38,978 nt of DNA, from the IMG/VR virus record IMGVR_UViG_2778261386_000007. One strand, 5' to 3'. Below, in pieces: positions 10,303-18,002 of the stretch; positions within the stretch are counted from its first letter, which is position 1, and every line of letters starts with the position of its first letter. The DNA comes from a virus (Duplodnaviria; Heunggongvirae; Uroviricota; Caudoviricetes). The translations under genes and the position numbers were made by a program. Under the pieces are notes generated by a model. That model had not been told where the DNA came from. It ran no database searches and saw only the letters and a list, made by a program, of their open reading frames with translations.

Positions 10303-11298
10303 GTGACCGTGAGAGCACTACTGACCCCTGAAATTGCCCCGCGTATGGGGATCGTATTGTTCAGACCAGGTTCAGAGCTGATGCCCCTGTTTATGCAGGG
10401 GCGTGTCCTGCTGGAGCCTGAGCCGGAACGTTATTCATCTTTCGCCAGTGGTGCCGTTCCGGCGGCATCACAACCGCTGGCGGATGATCCTACCGTTCGG
10501 GCCGTGTTCCGCAATGAGGCAGTGATCCGTCGTGCTGGTGGCGTGGAATGTCTTGAAAGCTGGTTACTTCGTGAAAAAGGCTGCCAGTGGCCTCATTCCG
10601 ACTGGCACAGCGAGAACATGACCACAATGCGACACGCTCCGGGTGCAATCCGTCTGTGCTGGCACTGCGATAACCAGCTGCGCGATCAGTTCACGGAACG
10701 GCTGGAATCAATGGCAACGGATAACTGTGCCCGCTGGGTGTTGTCTGTTGTGCGTCGGGATCTCGGTTTTGATGACAGTCACGTTGTGACAATGCCGGAA
10801 CTGTGCTGGTGGCTGATTCGTAATGACCTGGCGGATGCCTTACCGGAAAGTGCAGCCCGTAAGGCACTGAGATTACCGAAGCCTGTTGTGCCGTCTGTCA
10901 CCCGGGAAAGTGACCTTGTGCCTTCGGTTCCTGCCACCAGCATCATCCAGGATAAGGCGAAAAAGGTGCTGGCGCTGAAAGTGGATCCGGAGTCGCCGGA
11001 GTCTTTTATGTTACGCCCAAAACGTCGCCGCTGGGTTAATGAAAAGTACACGCGCTGGGTTAAGACACAGCCGTGTGCATGTTGTGGAAAGCCCGCTGAT
11101 GATCCCCACCACCTGATAGGTTACGGTCAGGGTGGAATGGGAACAAAAGCCCATGACCTTTTTGTGTTGCCTTTGTGCAGAAAGCATCACGACGAGCTGC
11201 ATGCGGATACCGTGGTATTTGAAGAAAAGTATGGCTCTCAGTTGGAGCTGATATTTCGTTTTATCGATCGTGCGCTGGCAATTGGCGTGCTGGCCTGA
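10303..11298 (+). CDS. DUF968-type nin-region protein with C-terminal HNH-like Cys/His motif (331 aa)
   Basis: C-terminus PCACCGKPADDPHHLIGYGQGGMGTKAHDLFVLPLCRKHHDELH; common lambdoid nin-region gene; GTG start per ORF track. Confidence 0.6.
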   Translation: MTVRALLTPEIAPRMGIVLFRPGSELMPLFMQGRVLLEPEPERYSSFASGAVPAASQPLADDPTVRAVFRNEAVIRRAGGVECLESWLLREKGCQWPHSDWHSENMTTMRHAPGAIRLCWHCDNQLRDQFTERLESMATDNCARWVLSVVRRDLGFDDSHVVTMPELCWWLIRNDLADALPESAARKALRLPKPVVPSVTRESDLVPSVPATSIIQDKAKKVLALKVDPESPESFMLRPKRRRWVNEKYTRWVKTQPCACCGKPADDPHHLIGYGQGGMGTKAHDLFVLPLCRKHHDELHADTVVFEEKYGSQLELIFRFIDRALAIGVLA

Positions 11299-11699: not shown

Positions 11700-11724
11700 A
11701 AGCCCGATTACTCGGGCTTTTGTT
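11700..11724 (+). terminator. Hairpin plus T-tract after Q, overlapping the 3' end of the convergent gene
   Basis: AAGCCCGA-TTAC-TCGGGCTT followed by TTGTT. Confidence 0.45.
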
Positions 11725-12727
11725 CCACATCTCGAACATAGAGAATTACTGCTGACTTAATGTCACCATCGACGTGTTTTGCGTTAATGCTCAAATGTAC
11801 AGGCTTTCTTTCCCACTCAGCTCGCTGCAATGCTTCTTTGTTTCCGGATTCATCAAGGAAAACATCCTGAACTACGCAGGTTAGACGTTGGTCGGTATCT
11901 ACGCGTCGGACCTTAACTTTGAAACTCTCTGGGTCAGTATTATTGACTTCTTCAATTCGGTAAATACCATCAATCCTCATTTCTGATGAACGTCTACGAG
12001 CATTCGTAACCAACTCTTTCGCCATTTCAGAATCAATAGTAACGCCATCAATTTGAGCGTTATCTGAACGCACAAAGGATTTGACCATTTGGGTTTTAGC
12101 GTCATACGACATACGGTCCATGTTATCGAGAAGTGGTTTTTCCGCAATCATTTCTGAAATAACCCGCAGGCGTTTAGTTTCTTGCTCGCTCATGATCTGC
12201 ATAGTCCGGAGATGTTCTTTCTCTCCATCCTTAGCAATTTCTGCAAGGCGAATATCTTTACGGTTGTCCAAGAACCGTTTAAATACTGTTACTCCGCCCC
12301 AGATGACTGCTGCGCCGAGAACAGTAAACATGATCTCAGTTGCGTTCATTTTACCAACAAGTTCCTGTGTGAGTTTGGTTAAAAAGCCATCAATGTTGAT
12401 TTCTACTATTGAAGAACCCTGTTCTACCGTAACTTCTATTTCTAGGGCATCAAGTTCTTCTTTGGTCAGTTTGCGGACGTCAGGGACACCGTACTTGGCA
12501 AGGGCATATGATTTGTTGATTTGAGCTTGCATTTCAACAAATCCCTTCATAACTGAAGGTGTTAGCGATCTGTTGAATTTTTCACCGGTTAATCTGATGG
12601 TAAGGTTTGGCCATCCGTTGAAACTTAAACTGTCAGGTAAACCATAACCATCAAGATAGCTTTCAAGCAAATCGAAGGCTTGCTGCTCAGATTCAATGTC
12701 TACATGAATCTCATCAAACTTATCCAA
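11708..12727 (-). CDS. Hypothetical membrane-anchored protein (339 aa), reverse-oriented moron between Q and the late operon
   Basis: TTG start at 12727 with GAGGA 7 nt upstream; visibly AT-rich; one central hydrophobic segment (EIMFTVLGAAVIWGGVTVFKRF) flanked by charged, helical domains; no family recognised. Confidence 0.6.
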   Translation of the reverse strand: MDKFDEIHVDIESEQQAFDLLESYLDGYGLPDSLSFNGWPNLTIRLTGEKFNRSLTPSVMKGFVEMQAQINKSYALAKYGVPDVRKLTKEELDALEIEVTVEQGSSIVEINIDGFLTKLTQELVGKMNATEIMFTVLGAAVIWGGVTVFKRFLDNRKDIRLAEIAKDGEKEHLRTMQIMSEQETKRLRVISEMIAEKPLLDNMDRMSYDAKTQMVKSFVRSDNAQIDGVTIDSEMAKELVTNARRRSSEMRIDGIYRIEEVNNTDPESFKVKVRRVDTDQRLTCVVQDVFLDESGNKEALQRAEWERKPVHLSINAKHVDGDIKSAVILYVRDVEQKPE

Positions 12728-12902
12728 AAATATGTCCTCATTCTAAGCCAACTGTCACCGTGAGGTTTGGCAACGCCTGCTTTATTTTTCGTTTTAAGCT
12801 GTGTGGCAAAAAAATAATGGAAAAACAGATAAAAATCACTAACGCGGTCCGCATTTTCTAGATTACTGTGTTAAGAGTGGTTACTTCGCCACACAACTTA
12901 AA

Positions 12903-12925
12903 CCCGCCGCTGAGCGGTTTTTTTG
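12903..12925 (+). terminator. Short GC hairpin plus T7 tract (candidate tR'-like terminator of a short late leader)
   Basis: CCGC-TGA-GCGG followed by TTTTTTT; short stem, so weak call. Confidence 0.3.
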
Positions 12926-13022
12926 TACCTGTAAACTTGGTGCAGCACAGTAAACACGCTGGTGGTCGTGAATACTGACTTTTTATCTTGCTGGCTTTTT
13001 AGACAAGAGTTATTGGTATGTC

Positions 13023-13250
13023 ATGTTAACCAGAAGGGAAAAAGACATGCTAAAACAGCAAGATATGACAGAAACCGCCGCCGCAGTCCTTCATTTCTTA
13101 CCTGCTGACAAGTGGGTAACGCCACGCATGATGACGAGAACTACCGGAGTAAGCGAAGCCCGGTGCCAGTTAATACTGACTCAGTTAGTTCTGGCGGGTC
13201 TGGCGAAGGATAACGGCGGGTACGGGAATAAATTCAGACGCTGCCAGTAA
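13023..13250 (+). CDS. Small hypothetical protein, possibly winged-helix DNA binding (75 aa)
   Basis: ORF upstream of the methyltransferase; alternative ATG at 13047 has AAGGG upstream; helix-rich with basic C-terminus. Confidence 0.45.
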   Translation: MLTRREKDMLKQQDMTETAAAVLHFLPADKWVTPRMMTRTTGVSEARCQLILTQLVLAGLAKDNGGYGNKFRRCQ

Positions 13251-13400
13251 TGGCGGTTTCCTGCTGTGAAAATGGGCGGCTGGTGGGTGTTGGTAGCACC
13301 TGCCAGCCATTCGCTCATGCTTACTGGTCACAAGCGAACCACGGCCCACTGCTTTAGCGCAAAAGCAGAGTGAGCCTACCAGAGTTACGCTTACTGATCC

Positions 13401-14453
13401 ATGAAAAATACTGTAAAAATAAACAGTGTTGATTTAATCAACGCTGATTGCCTGCATTTTATTCAGTCCCTGCCTGATGATTCCATTGACCTGATTGTTA
13501 CCGATCCGCCTTACTTCAAAGTGAAACCTAACGGTTGGGACAATCAGTGGAAAGGGGACGAAGATTACCTTAAGTGGCTGGACCACTGTCTGGCCCAGTT
13601 CTGGCGGGTGTTAAAACCTGCCGGAAGCCTTTACCTGTTCTGTGGGCATCGCCTGGCATCTGATATTGAGATCATGATGCGTGAACGTTTCAACGTGCTT
13701 AACCATATCATCTGGGCGAAGCCGTCCGGACGTTGGAATGGGTGTAATAAAGAAAGTCTGCGCGCATATTTTCCTGCCACAGAGCGCGTTCTGTTTGCTG
13801 AACATTACCAGGGGCCATATCGCGGCAAAAGTGACGACTATGCGGCAAAAGAAAGGGAACTCAAACAGCACATAATGGCACCGCTGATATCGTATTTCAG
13901 GGATGCTCGTGCCGAACTGGGTATAACGGCAAAACAAATTGCCGAAGCCACAGGTAAGAAAAATATGGTTTCCCACTGGTTTGGTGCCAGTCAGTGGCAG
14001 TTGCCGAATGAGGCTGACTATCGGAAGTTACAGGCACTGTTTTCCCGTATAGCGGCAGAGAAGTTTCAGGAACAACAACTGGAACAACCACACCACCAGC
14101 TGGTGGCATCTTATGATTCACTGAATCGCAAATATTCTGAATTGCTGGATGAGTTTAAATCTCTCCGGCGCTATTTCTCCGTATCAGTCTCCGTGCCTTA
14201 TACCGATGTCTGGACGCATAAGCCCGTTCAGTTCTACCCGGGTAAACATCCGTGCGAGAAACCGGCGGATATGCTCCGGCAAATAATCAATGCCAGTAGT
14301 CGACCTGGTGATCTGGTTGCTGATTTCTTTATGGGATCCGGTTCCACAATAAAAGCAGCAATGGCGCTGGGGCGTCGGGCGTTAGGTGTTGAACTTGAGT
14401 CAGAGCGGTTTAATCAGACGGTGAAAGAGGTAAGTGAACTGGTGGGGAAATAA
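13401..14453 (+). CDS. DNA methyltransferase, beta-class (motif IV DPPY before motif I), probably N6-adenine (350 aa)
   Basis: IVTDPPYF near the N-terminus and DLVADFFMGSGSTIKAA near the C-terminus give the circularly permuted order of beta-class N6A/N4C enzymes; no cognate restriction gene recognised nearby. Confidence 0.85.
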   Translation: MKNTVKINSVDLINADCLHFIQSLPDDSIDLIVTDPPYFKVKPNGWDNQWKGDEDYLKWLDHCLAQFWRVLKPAGSLYLFCGHRLASDIEIMMRERFNVLNHIIWAKPSGRWNGCNKESLRAYFPATERVLFAEHYQGPYRGKSDDYAAKERELKQHIMAPLISYFRDARAELGITAKQIAEATGKKNMVSHWFGASQWQLPNEADYRKLQALFSRIAAEKFQEQQLEQPHHQLVASYDSLNRKYSELLDEFKSLRRYFSVSVSVPYTDVWTHKPVQFYPGKHPCEKPADMLRQIINASSRPGDLVADFFMGSGSTIKAAMALGRRALGVELESERFNQTVKEVSELVGK

Positions 14454-14460
14454 TTCTGGT

Positions 14461-14486
14461 GGCCACGTTGCGTGGCCTTTTTATTT
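14461..14486 (+). terminator. Rho-independent terminator between methyltransferase and holin
   Basis: GGCCACG-TTG-CGTGGCC followed by TTTTTATTT. Confidence 0.6.
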
Positions 14487-14529
14487 CCAACACAGCACCC
14501 GCAAATATCGCGAGGTGAGAGATGACGAA

Positions 14530-14856
14530 ATGCCTCATAACCCAAATACCTGGCTGGACTTGGTCCAGAGCTGGTGGCGTGGAGACACACCGCTGGGTGC
14601 AGTGATTATGTCGATCGTTATGGCTGGTTTGCGCATCGCCTATTTTGGCGGTGGTGGTGGCTGGAAGCGAAAAACGCTCGAGATTTTGCTATGTGGCGCT
14701 CTGACGCTGACCTTTGCATCCGCTCTTGAGTATGTCGGATGGCCTAAATCACTTTCTGTTGCCATTGGTGGTGGGGTGGGGCTGATCGGTGTCGATGCTA
14801 TTCGTGGGGCTGCAATGCGAGTAATCGGTAACAAATTTGGTGGCTCTAAGGAGTAA
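14530..14856 (+). CDS. Holin (lambda S-like, 108 aa from ATG 14530)
   Basis: Hydrophobic TM segments (GAVIMSIVMAGLRIAYFGGGG, LEILLCGALTLTFASALEYVGW, LSVAIGGGVGLIGVDAI) and charged C-terminal tail; immediately precedes the endolysin. Confidence 0.78.
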   Translation: MPHNPNTWLDLVQSWWRGDTPLGAVIMSIVMAGLRIAYFGGGGGWKRKTLEILLCGALTLTFASALEYVGWPKSLSVAIGGGVGLIGVDAIRGAAMRVIGNKFGGSKE

Positions 14857-14859
14857 TTT

Positions 14860-15336
14860 ATGCAGGTACTAAATTCCCAGCGTAAAGCTTTCCTTGATAT
14901 GGTGGCTTGGTCAGAAGGAACGGATAACGGACGACAACCGACACGTAACCACGGTTATGACGTTATTGTCGGTGGTGAACTCTTCACTGATTACTCCGAT
15001 CACCCTCGCAAACTTGTCACGCTAAACCCGAAACTCAAGTCAACAGCCGCCGGACGTTACCAGCTTCTTTCACGCTGGTGGGATGCTTACCGTAAACAGC
15101 TTGGCCTGAAAGATTTTTCTCCAGAAAGCCAGGACGCTGTAGCTCTGCAGCAGATTAAAGAGCGTGGCGCTTTACCGATGATTGACCGTGGCAATATTCG
15201 TCAGGCAATCGACCGTTGCAGCAATATCTGGGCGTCATTACCTGGTGCAGGTTACGGTCAGTATGAACATAAAATCGGTGACCTGATTGCACGGTTTGAA
15301 GAGGCTGGTGGGGTGATAAATGAAGTTGAGCTATAA
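14860..15336 (+). CDS. R: Endolysin, lambda R-type lytic transglycosylase (158 aa)
   Basis: Near-identical over most of its length to my recollection of lambda R (NSQRKAFLDMVAWSEGTDNGRQPTRNHGYDVIVGGELFTDYSDHPRKLVTLNPKLKSTAAGRYQLLSRWWDAYRKQLGLKDF...). Confidence 0.93.
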   Translation: MQVLNSQRKAFLDMVAWSEGTDNGRQPTRNHGYDVIVGGELFTDYSDHPRKLVTLNPKLKSTAAGRYQLLSRWWDAYRKQLGLKDFSPESQDAVALQQIKERGALPMIDRGNIRQAIDRCSNIWASLPGAGYGQYEHKIGDLIARFEEAGGVINEVEL

Positions 15337-15712
15337 GCTGGTTATCGCTGCTTTCTTCGTTACTGTCATTGGTTCTTTCATCTGGTCAGCCAACCACTAC
15401 TACAGCAAATATCAGTACGAAAAGAAACGTGCTGATGAGGCTGAACGAAATGCTGGATCAGCAACAGCCATTACCAATAACGTCCTGCAATCACTGCAAA
15501 TCGTCAATACAGTACTGGAGGCTAACCAGCATGCAAAACAGCAGATCGCACTGGAGTCACAGAGAACCCAGGAAGATATCAAAATGGCTGTTGCGGATGA
15601 TGATTGTGCTTCACGTGCTGTGCCTGCTGCCGCTGCTGACCGGTTGCGGAAGTACGCGGACAGTTTACGTGAGCGTTCCGGTGGCACCACTGCCACCCAG
15701 CCTGACTTCTGA
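15320..15712 (+). CDS. Rz: Rz-like inner-membrane spanin (130 aa)
   Basis: N-terminal TM (LVIAAFFVTVIGSFIWSANHY) followed by a charged coiled-coil region; start overlaps the endolysin 3' end. Confidence 0.68.
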   Translation: MKLSYKLVIAAFFVTVIGSFIWSANHYYSKYQYEKKRADEAERNAGSATAITNNVLQSLQIVNTVLEANQHAKQQIALESQRTQEDIKMAVADDDCASRAVPAAAADRLRKYADSLRERSGGTTATQPDF

Positions 15713-15875: not shown

Positions 15876-16502
15876 TCAGTTGTCAAATGAATATACGTTA
15901 AAGGTATATGTCGACATAATTTCACCAAGTACCTCAATACATACACTTTTTTTATGAAAATTACTGGGAAATGAACTTAGCTCCTCAAGACATTGCACAT
16001 AAGTGCTGATATCACTTGCATCACGTTCAAGGAATTTCACTTGACCAAAAGAAGGAGTTTTAATCTTGGTTCTTTGCTGGATTATATGGATAAAGTGTGT
16101 AGTTGGTGAAACTATTACTCTTGAAATATCGGAAATGATGTCTTCTTGAACTTGCCGATAAAGTAAATCCTTTGGGTAATGGTGTTTTATCTCGATGGTT
16201 GCAACATTGCCATTATGTTCAGACGTTAATATCGACTGGTTATAAAGTGATATGTCAACAGCGCCGATACCGAGTTTTGGATGCTCACTTAAAGCAGTTA
16301 GTGTGCTGATTTGATTGAGTATAACAACTAACTCATCACGTATTTGTGTTTCATGTTTGCGATTGTAGAAGTAGCCATTCAGTTCATTTAACTTTTTATG
16401 CATCCTATCGTGACTAATTGCTTCGATCAGTAAATCCTGAATCATACTTTTCTCTAGGTAATCCGAACGGTTGTAAGTGACAGTATTGTGCTGGCATGTC
16501 AT
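15876..16502 (-). CDS. Hypothetical protein (208 aa) with possible PD-(D/E)xK nuclease-like motif; downstream gene of an AT-rich reverse cassette
   Basis: Visibly AT-rich; hydrophobic-D ... hydrophobic-E-x-K spacing (GIGAVDISL, then 22 residues, then TIEIKHH); alternative ATG at 16445; no family recognised. Confidence 0.55.
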   Translation of the reverse strand: MTCQHNTVTYNRSDYLEKSMIQDLLIEAISHDRMHKKLNELNGYFYNRKHETQIRDELVVILNQISTLTALSEHPKLGIGAVDISLYNQSILTSEHNGNVATIEIKHHYPKDLLYRQVQEDIISDISRVIVSPTTHFIHIIQQRTKIKTPSFGQVKFLERDASDISTYVQCLEELSSFPSNFHKKSVCIEVLGEIMSTYTFNVYSFDN

Positions 16503-16881: not shown

Positions 16882-17031
16882 TTGTGAACTCCTGTTCATT
16901 GAGTTTCAACAACTATCAACTACATCCAGCGAAGCATAAAAGATCGTTTATGGCAAAACCGGAATGGAGTGCGATTCGATTCTGAGAAGGGTGCCACGTA
17001 TCGTACGCGAACCATCCAAGAGGATTATGCA

Positions 17032-17382
17032 ATGCCCCTACGAACCCCAAAAGCCTGCCGCGTTCGCGGCTGCCGTAATACCACTACAGACCCGTCAGGC
17101 TACTGCGAAAGCCACAAAAACGAAGGCTGGAAACAATACAAGCCGGGGCAATCTCGTCATCAGCGCGGTTATGGTTCGAAGTGGGATGTTATCCGCGCGC
17201 GTGTGCTGAAGCGTGACAAAGGTTTATGTCAATTATGTCTGCATGCTGGTGTGGTGGGTGAGGCGAAAACCGTTGACCACATCATTCCCAAAGCGCATGG
17301 CGGCACCGATGCCGACAGTAACCTGCAGAGTCTGTGCTGGCCGTGTCATAAGGCGAAGACGGCCCGTGAACGGCTGAAGTAA
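17032..17382 (+). CDS. HNH endonuclease, terminase-associated (116 aa)
   Basis: CxxC...H-N-H pattern (CQLCLHAGVVGEAKTVDHIIPKAHGGTDADSNLQSLCWPCHKAK); AGAGGA SD; immediately upstream of the terminase small subunit, as in HK97-like cos phages. Confidence 0.85.
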   Translation: MPLRTPKACRVRGCRNTTTDPSGYCESHKNEGWKQYKPGQSRHQRGYGSKWDVIRARVLKRDKGLCQLCLHAGVVGEAKTVDHIIPKAHGGTDADSNLQSLCWPCHKAKTARERLK

Positions 17383-17467: not shown

Positions 17468-17507
17468 TATACCCGCGAAAAATGAAATTTAACCAGGAGT
17501 GCCGCAT

Positions 17508-18002
17508 ATGGCTGGAACGGCGGGGCGTTCCGGGCGTCGCCCCAAGCCAACGGCGCGCAAGGCGCTGGCCGGAAACCCCGGCAAGCGAGCCCTGAATAAA
17601 GATGAACCTGTTTTTACGCCCATCAAAGGTGTTGAGCCACCGGAGTGGTTCGCTGAAGAAGATCTCCCTCTCGCCACGATCATGTGGCAACTGACAACTA
17701 AAGAACTCTGCGGTCAGGGCCTGCTGTGCGTGACTGACCTCGCGGTGCTTGAGCGGTGGTGCGTGGCCTATGAGTTCTGGCGACGTGCCGTGAAAAATAT
17801 TGCCAGACAGGGCAACACCATCACCGGTGCAATGGGCGGTATGGTCAAAAATCCGGAGCTGACCGCCAAAAAAGAACAGGAGTCCGAGATGAGCAGTACG
17901 GGGGCAATGCTCGGACTCGACCCCAGCAGCCGCCAGCGTCTGATTGGCCTGGCGGGGAAGAAGAAAGCCACTAACCCGTTTCTGAAAATCATCGAATCAT
18001 GA
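17508..18002 (+). CDS. Terminase small subunit (P27-family-like, 164 aa)
   Basis: AGGAG 8 nt upstream of ATG 17508 (ORF track begins at GTG 17499); basic N-terminus [27 protein letters not shown] typical of P27-type small terminases; stop overlaps the large-subunit start. Confidence 0.82.

Follow-up and report, generated by a model that had tools for sequence, protein, structure and literature searches.

What does a methyltransferase gene do in the leader of a phage late operon, and how would the phage keep its product in check? The question is raised by a 38,978-nucleotide (nt) stretch of DNA (IMG/VR virus record IMGVR_UViG_2778261386_000007; hereafter, the window), an Escherichia coli lambdoid prophage carrying Q, holin, endolysin, and Rz, in which a small open reading frame (ORF) and a methyltransferase gene lie ahead of the lysis genes. 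An original prediction, made from the sequence, had described this pair as an orphan beta-class DNA methyltransferase preceded by a possible DNA-binding protein of 75 amino acids (aa), placed between two terminators in the late operon. From the present analysis, the module as a whole is best explained, with good confidence, as an M.EcoGII-family orphan that would be gated by Q, serve against restriction, and be dosed at the RNA level. Two elements of this explanation, the M.EcoGII family and the structured RNA of the 150-nt spacer between the two genes, had been missed by the original prediction. The leader RNA is the sole novel lead of the module, the methyltransferase gene itself being of a known kind.

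The methyltransferase belongs to the M.EcoGII family

The 350-aa methyltransferase carries TDPPYF at residues 34-39 (DPPY at 35-38) and FFMGSGS at residues 309-315 (FxGxG at 310-314), and it matches the PF01555 profile (N6_N4_Mtase; E 1.2e-42) with 146.8 bits, against a cutoff of 26.7. With DPPY N-terminal to FxGxG and a profile score above the curated cutoff, the protein is a beta-class enzyme, as had been proposed. Both motifs are invariant in the family alignment (A3), and the PADLOC model MTase_II (PDLC03265) also matches (E 1.6e-151).

Over its full length and without real gaps, the protein is 81% identical to M.EcoGII (282/349), a value that is a lower bound because of reading errors in the compared sequence; in the target-recognition region (160-240) the identity is ~75%, ungapped. 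Its full-length identity to Anc291 is 89%; this reconstructed ancestor has been purified and methylates DNA and RNA with no discernible motif (PMC11551740). Every tested node from M.EcoGII to Anc284 proved non-specific, and the nearest relative with a defined site, M.PflMI, is only 27% identical to M.EcoGII (PMC11551740). Furthermore, EspM, a natural homologue belonging to the Anc291-Anc289 region of the tree, has been reported as a non-specific adenine methyltransferase (PMC13540299), and M.EcoGII itself is prophage-encoded and methylates adenine in any context (PMC5778455). Given the 81% identity to M.EcoGII, the 89% identity to Anc291, and the distance of M.PflMI, the enzyme of the window belongs to the M.EcoGII family, and its relatives strongly suggest that it methylates adenine non-specifically.

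A different reading would make it a sequence-specific orphan, like Dam, CcrM, or YhdJ, which modifies one short motif for protection or for phage gene regulation. Such specificity is the default for PF01555 proteins, and databases indeed label the protein "site-specific DNA-methyltransferase"; moreover, its best matches among relatives of solved structure are the site-specific M.RsrI, M.MboIIA, and CcrM, and the NCBIfam YhdJ-type model gives a weak match (110 bits, with a cutoff of 292). The resemblance to site-specific enzymes is, however, limited to the catalytic core, and it stands against full-length similarity to M.EcoGII and to an ancestor tested as non-specific, within a part of the tree where all tested nodes behave alike and from which the nearest site-specific relative is remote. 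Recognition of a single short motif is thus very unlikely, and we suggest that the annotation "site-specific DNA-methyltransferase" be replaced by "M.EcoGII-type, probably non-specific."

Three database entries (P0099, P0144, and P0209) show the methyltransferase, 99% identical over 80-85% of its length, fused to unrelated N-terminal domains (PF03245; PF26078/PF26079; PF06316/PF13505). These fusions are probably gene-calling or assembly artefacts.

An orphan with a conserved address in the late operon

For the genomic context, 80 loci, one per different Enterobacterales species, were fetched via the family alignment and all of their neighbouring ORFs were clustered. Across these loci the module lies between Q and the lysis genes, in the same orientation. 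Endolysins (43 loci), spanins, and holins recur downstream of it, and DUF968 proteins and members of several Q families upstream. A Q-to-lysis or Q-to-stx placement was also found in Ayreon, cdtI, Salmonella, and Stx2e/Stx2c prophages, and the late-operon location that had been predicted thus recurs in all related loci examined. No nuclease-like family was present among the conserved neighbours in the clustered set, and the adjacent, co-inherited nuclease that defines a type II restriction-modification (R-M) system is lacking. Since no nuclease recurs and the neighbours are constant, the methyltransferase is an orphan, in agreement with the original prediction, and within the late operon it keeps to the promoter-proximal part. 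This address fits Q-dependent expression, a dependence that we read from position.

The gene could also be one half of a complete R-M system whose nuclease is encoded nearby, and the window offers two candidates on the opposite strand. One is a 208-aa protein with a restriction-endonuclease-like fold, encoded 1.4 kilobases (kb) downstream of the methyltransferase; its gene, however, is found together with the methyltransferase in only one of the 80 species loci, and it occurs in 80 E. coli genomes, against 1495 with the methyltransferase module. In spite of its nuclease-like fold, this protein was rejected as the cognate enzyme for absence of linkage. The other candidate, a 339-aa protein, gave no match in Pfam, PADLOC, NCBIfam, or the PDB, and was set aside as having no informative database match. 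We regard a complete R-M system as extremely improbable.

The block formed by the small ORF and the methyltransferase is 96-98% identical (megablast) in phages SfV (orf47/orf48), mEp460, cdtI, and Ayreon, and ~90% identical in Stx2c phages. Among 5426 complete E. coli genomes, 1495 carry the module, and more than 2800 related methyltransferase proteins are found across Enterobacterales. In the Stx2e prophage of E. coli ETEC6334 (locus L008, 2669-5695), the small ORF, leader, and methyltransferase stand directly upstream of tRNA-Ile/tRNA-Arg and stx2e, a gene order by which methyltransferase and toxin would share the late transcript. In RM13322 (L009), the methyltransferase is annotated as frameshifted.

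A structured leader RNA precedes the methyltransferase

The stretch between the stop codon of the small ORF and the AUG of the methyltransferase measures 147-154 nt in Enterobacteriaceae and Erwiniaceae (142-143 nt in Providencia), and its sequence is better kept than that of the middle part of the small ORF. This spacer is a structured RNA. Its helices (H1, H2, H3, and H5; Table 1) were counted on two MAFFT alignments, A4 with 38 sequences and A5 with 26 more diverse sequences. Paired cells amounted to 85.5% in A4 and 82.3% in A5, and to no more than 44% in both when the partners were slid; compensatory changes were observed at 11 and 17 pairs, respectively. In A4 as in A5, none of 500 shuffles came up to the real alignment in paired fraction, in compensatory cells, or in covariation score. 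In the more diverse alignment, changes on both sides were seen at nine of the 12 inner H1 pairs and at three of the four distal H5 pairs.

Folding led to the same structure. RNAalifold independently recovered H1 and H3, and the minimum-energy fold of the window sequence includes H1, H3, and H5. The minimum free energy of the plus strand was -61.6 kcal/mol (z -2.98; 0/200 shuffles as good), with z -1.56 for the minus strand. Moreover, G-U pairs are frequent, so that the helices are kept by the sense transcript alone. With a covariance model, 73 matches were obtained in 89 sources: nearly all of the related loci searched have the element directly upstream of the methyltransferase, among them ~20 loci without the small ORF. 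Its conservation reaches from Escherichia as far as Yersinia and Providencia, and a close orthologue of M.EcoGII (at least 95% identity) has a matching small ORF and leader. In Photorhabdus/Xenorhabdus loci (L063-L065, L070, L075, L076, L084, L089, and L090), the spacer measures 85-107 nt and the covariance model scores 23-30 bits, denoting a leader that is truncated or remodelled there.

At the gathering threshold, an Rfam 15 scan of the whole window gave no match to the leader, and a permissive scan (12700-13450, E up to 10) placed nothing within 13251-13400. With no Rfam match, AgvB/AsxR, StxS, STnc100, IsrK, and riboswitches, including those for S-adenosylmethionine and S-adenosylhomocysteine (SAM/SAH), were rejected as identities of the spacer; in addition, papers on prophage small RNAs (sRNAs) locate these sRNA genes elsewhere. 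A description of the leader was not found in the literature searched; papers on pR' regions and on Stx2a phage types mention neither the leader nor the methyltransferase gene.

In this context, the spacer might be read not as a cis-acting leader but as an sRNA gene, an RNase processing site, or a DNA element, for example the near-palindrome TTTAGCGC(A/T)AAA. Lambdoid late regions do hold many Hfq-bound sRNAs (PMC4104026), in many relatives the loop of H3 forms a perfect palindrome, and H1, with ~18 base pairs, would come near the length of an RNase III substrate. Against this, the element always abuts the methyltransferase AUG, at a constant distance and on the same strand; it has no promoter and no terminator of its own; its G-U-rich helices survive in the plus-strand transcript alone; and H5 takes in the nucleotides just before the start codon and covaries. 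A function other than that of a leader is unlikely on this evidence.

As regards what the leader may do, in no genus does a Shine-Dalgarno sequence precede the methyltransferase AUG, and positions -12 to -2 upstream of it lie within H5. One half of H5, UCAC(A/G)(A/G)GC, has two other possible partners: that of H2, in which three pairs show compensatory changes, and that of a CUGUG:CACAA helix found by RNAalifold. The leader thus has the look of a switch that closes or opens the translation start. It is possible, although we hold it only tentatively and would sooner bet against it, that the leader is an undescribed cis-regulatory RNA switch in which the choice between the H5 fold and an alternative (H2 or CUGUG:CACAA) gates translation of the methyltransferase. 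The trigger of such a switch could be the small protein encoded upstream, a metabolite (for example SAM or SAH), or the RNA-active enzyme itself, should it methylate the leader.

A small winged-helix gene is a frequent companion

Upstream of the leader, the 75-aa ORF is present at 13023-13250 (+). Nearly all of its homologues begin at the second ATG (13047; MLKQQDMTE...), 6-7 nt before which AAGGGA stands as a ribosome-binding site; the start at 13047 (67 aa) appears more likely than that at 13023 (75 aa). We found 89 homologues, some with PF17782 or named as TrmB/IscR-family proteins. The helix RCQLILTQL is invariant although the family falls to ~50% identity, and the DNA beneath it shows synonymous changes, which, together with the phrog_331 match, indicates that the small ORF is a real gene.

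The AF2 model of the 67-aa protein (pLDDT 85; H4-25, H34-41, H45-57, E61-63, and E71-73) consists of three helices and a beta-hairpin wing, the arrangement that defines a winged helix. Foldseek matches were generic and weak (Zalpha, the IclR N-terminal domain, TrmBL2, and the RNA-binding SelB domain); Zalpha reached TM 0.73/0.84, yet every Foldseek E-value was at least 2.6e-3. The modelled fold would make a nucleic-acid-binding role plausible, and the DNA-binding protein of the original prediction stands to that extent, with its length revised downwards.

The small ORF lies directly upstream of the methyltransferase in 57 of the 80 species loci and is missing in 24 of 81 scanned loci; consequently, it is dispensable to the methyltransferase. 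No match to it was found in Pfam, NCBIfam, or PADLOC. An identity as PapI/FaeA was rejected on these negative searches and on a winged-helix fold that is generic only, and an identity as an R-M controller (C) protein on the lack of an HTH_3-type match and on a winged helix in place of an Xre-type helix-turn-helix (HTH). The small protein may regulate its own expression or the leader.

Terminators fence the module

The two terminators that had been predicted around the pair were both found by our scan, with stems at 12906-12918 and 14461-14477, and their positions recur in other loci. By sequence, each site is a G+C-rich hairpin with a T-run, as expected of an intrinsic terminator. The upstream one may be assigned either to tR' or to a module-proximal terminator; megablast similarity to other phages starts at this point, and in nearly all of 60 distinct loci, drawn from many genera, the small ORF is preceded by a hairpin with a T-run, the stem sequences being different. 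After the methyltransferase stop, a terminator-like hairpin was seen in 29 of 66 loci under a strict criterion, again with differing sequences. The 3.8-kb region holds nine terminator-like sites, against 3.5 +/- 1.9 in shuffles.

A further hairpin spans the last codons and the stop of the small ORF. Loci that lack this ORF still have the hairpin, in varied sequence, and by score it is an intrinsic terminator in 24 of 58 loci; in the window it is weak (UUUCC tail). With this terminator-like hairpin, up to three terminators fence the methyltransferase. About 25 nt before the upstream terminator hairpin, TGnTAAGAG is conserved, a mere candidate for pR'.

After the upstream terminator and ahead of the small ORF stands a conserved box, with the consensus TTGCTG-N17-TAYNTG..TGTCAY across loci (also TAT(T/C)(G/T)G) and a spacer of fixed length and variable sequence. 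Of the 57 loci that have the small ORF, 53 also carry the box, which was found in 0 of the 24 loci that lack this ORF. Since the box tracks the small ORF, both form a sub-module that is dispensable to the methyltransferase. It fits the sigma-70 consensus at ~6/12 positions and was not among the hits of the promoter scan; it may be a weak promoter or an element of the 5' untranslated region. A promoter-like site with 9/12 positions inside the small ORF (13105-13132) was rejected, as it is not conserved in type-B small ORFs.

These elements bear on whether the module could be an autonomous moron that is independent of Q, with its own promoter (TTGCTG-N17-TATNTG) and with the winged-helix protein as a C-protein-like controller. 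Two hexamer-like blocks at a fixed 17-nt spacing do follow the upstream terminator in most small-ORF loci, and a terminator stands at both ends, as in morons. Of the features of a moron, the downstream terminator was seen, and upstream there is just the weak box tied to the small ORF. The box, however, lacks the -7 T in addition to its poor fit to the consensus, and it is absent in all loci that have leader and methyltransferase without the small ORF; a terminator-like hairpin often stands between small ORF and leader; M.EcoGII is silent in lysogens; and the winged helix of the small protein is not the Xre-type HTH of C proteins. An autonomous moron is accordingly improbable, and we retain the explanation of a Q-gated orphan.

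Proposed function and significance

The demonstrated family membership, gene order, terminators, RNA structure, and winged-helix fold are the ground on which we infer non-specific activity of the window orthologue, Q dependence, translational control, and an anti-restriction role. The enzyme would transfer methyl groups from S-adenosylmethionine to the N6 position of adenines, largely or wholly irrespective of the surrounding sequence. In the lysogen, transcription would end before the gene, and the toxic enzyme would not be made. After induction, Q-modified RNA polymerase would pass the terminators, and replicating phage DNA would be broadly adenine-methylated before packaging, a modification that may blunt restriction by type I, II, and III systems in the next host. 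Output of the methyltransferase would probably be held low or delayed at the RNA level, with H5 pairing the 12 nt before an AUG without a Shine-Dalgarno sequence and thereby limiting translation. The 67-aa winged-helix protein is a frequent yet dispensable companion.

Published work on M.EcoGII agrees with several of these steps. The enzyme is silent in the lysogen, and its constitutive expression is toxic and slows growth (PMC5778455; PMC12707154); terminator fencing and late position fit both Q read-through and this silence. M.EcoGII methylation stops many restriction enzymes (PMC5778455). In addition, tight dosing makes sense for an enzyme whose constitutive expression slows growth and whose heavily modified plasmid substrate transforms poorly.

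Some points weigh against this explanation. The window enzyme and M.EcoGII differ at 19% of residues, and the M.EcoGII sequence used in the comparison is that of Table S1 of PMC11551740, machine-read from a PDF, with a few evident reading errors. A plasmid heavily methylated by M.EcoGII transforms E. coli 10^4-10^5-fold worse (PMC5778455), and heavy methylation is therefore not simply beneficial. The sigma-70 promoter scan upstream of the module found none, and pR' could not be mapped in the window; furthermore, the conserved box, if it acts as a promoter, could free part of the module from Q. Finally, three mutually exclusive pairings compete for one leader segment, so that the repressing fold is just one of several.

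Once assigned to the M.EcoGII family, the gene is well understood; it is also very common, found in roughly one in four complete E. coli genomes, and the family is already characterised and sold as a reagent. By contrast, no description of how phages dose the toxic M.EcoGII was found in the literature searched. The covarying leader, the start without a Shine-Dalgarno sequence, the frequent winged-helix partner, and one to three terminators make up a concrete, testable control circuit, and in Stx2e/Stx2c prophages this circuit would lie on the toxin transcript. The proposed switch would sit in these prophages on the late transcript, a short way upstream of the Shiga toxin genes.

Genomic setting of the module

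The features of the module and its surroundings are listed in Table 1. The module region is 100% identical to a chromosome stretch of E. coli UPEC_U013.

Table 1. Features in and around the methyltransferase module (window coordinates)
Feature	Position	Strand	Basis or description
DUF968/HNH protein	10303-11298		First in gene order around the module
Late-gene antiterminator Q, 130 aa	11301-11693	+	PF06530 Phage_antitermQ, E 2.1e-52; phrog_79
339-aa ORF	11708-12727	-	Between Q and the late-operon terminator; PHROG 6191
Upstream intrinsic terminator	12904-12925	+	5-pair stem 12906-12918, then TTTTTTG (T7)
Conserved box	12988-13022	+	TTGCTG-N17-TATTGG..ATGTCAT; ahead of small ORF, after upstream terminator
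Small winged-helix protein, 67 aa (likelier start)	13047-13250	+	Homologue starts; phrog_331 E 3.1e-26; AF2 model
Hairpin over small-ORF stop codon	13241-13268	+	CTGCCA GTAA TGGCGG, then U-rich UUUCCUGCUGUG
Methyltransferase leader RNA, ~135 nt	13264-13400	+	Covariation, covariance model, folding energy
Leader helix H1	13272-13318	+	Long hairpin
Leader helix H2 (alternative)	13310-13318 pairs 13330-13338	+	
Leader helix H5 (long-range)	13326-13335 pairs 13389-13399	+	Directly before AUG
Leader helix H3	13343-13376	+	Bulged hairpin
Methyltransferase, 350 aa, M.EcoGII-family beta-class N6-adenine type	13401-14453	+	PF01555; identity to M.EcoGII/Anc291
Downstream intrinsic terminator	14461-14486	+	7-pair stem (6 G-C) 14461-14477, then TTTTTATTT
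Lysis cassette: holin, endolysin, Rz	14530-15712	+	Holin PF05106 E 4.5e-25; names from matching phages
208-aa protein, restriction-endonuclease-like (PD-(D/E)xK-like) fold	15876-16502	-	1.4 kb downstream of methyltransferase

The holin ORF as listed runs from GTG 14434 to 14856 and overlaps the methyltransferase stop and the downstream terminator. Its true start is probably the in-frame ATG at 14530 (108 aa), which is favoured because the Pfam match to the listed ORF sets in only at residue 33; with this start, the downstream terminator is intergenic. The 339-aa gene, which had been described as convergent with the methyltransferase, is instead convergent with Q. Its product has apparently one hydrophobic segment, and in its slot other phages carry different reverse-oriented genes (cdtI orf53/54; RM13322).

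Farther downstream, a 137-aa ORF at 16969-17382 (+) shows an HNH-type motif, DHIIP...N...CWPCH (read from translation only), and is directly followed by an ORF resembling a small terminase subunit at 17499-18002 (+); this order is the usual pairing of cos phages. A tRNA gene at 1369-1441 (+; 71.8 bits), the sole Rfam match of the window at the gathering threshold, may mark the prophage integration site.

Comparison with known systems

The closest known enzymes are M.EcoGII and M.EcoGI of E. coli O104:H4 C227-11 (Murray et al., 2018; PMC5778455), with which the window enzyme has in common the family, the length, the DPPY...FxGxG order, and the prophage location. It differs from M.EcoGII at about one residue in five, and its predicted non-specificity is drawn from its relatives; moreover, the upstream ORF, the leader RNA, and the terminators are undescribed in that publication (PMC5778455). 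Anc291/SUPREM (PMC11551740) and EspM (PMC13540299) are likewise close, Anc291 above all by its high identity, and motif-free methylation of DNA and RNA is a property established for them. Anc291 and SUPREM differ in being laboratory reconstructions used as tools, without genomic context.

Other phage orphan methyltransferases, such as the Dam-type enzymes of T4, T2, and P1 and the promiscuous alpha-class enzymes, likewise provide adenine methylation against restriction. They are, however, alpha-class or GATC-specific, whereas the window enzyme is beta-class and falls in the non-specific M.EcoGII clade. The C proteins of R-M systems resemble the small protein of the module in that both are small and of DNA-binding type and that their genes immediately precede a modification or restriction gene on the same strand. 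Theirs is, however, an Xre-type HTH that acts on a nuclease gene via C-boxes, whereas the module has a winged helix and no nuclease.

The closest functional analogy is possibly com-mom of phage Mu, which may work alike although its parts are unrelated. In com-mom, the modification enzyme is made late, its gene directly follows a small gene, and its translation start is occluded by a hairpin in the leader. Com is a zinc-finger protein, and Mom is an enzyme of acetyltransferase fold. The likeness consists of late production, of a small upstream gene, and of a start-occluding leader hairpin, the occlusion being a prediction of the folding model in the window module. The two systems have no relation in sequence or fold, and the small protein of the module is a winged helix that is absent from ~30% of loci. 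As with M.EcoGII, the modification enzyme of com-mom is toxic and is kept silent in the lysogen (PMC12707154).

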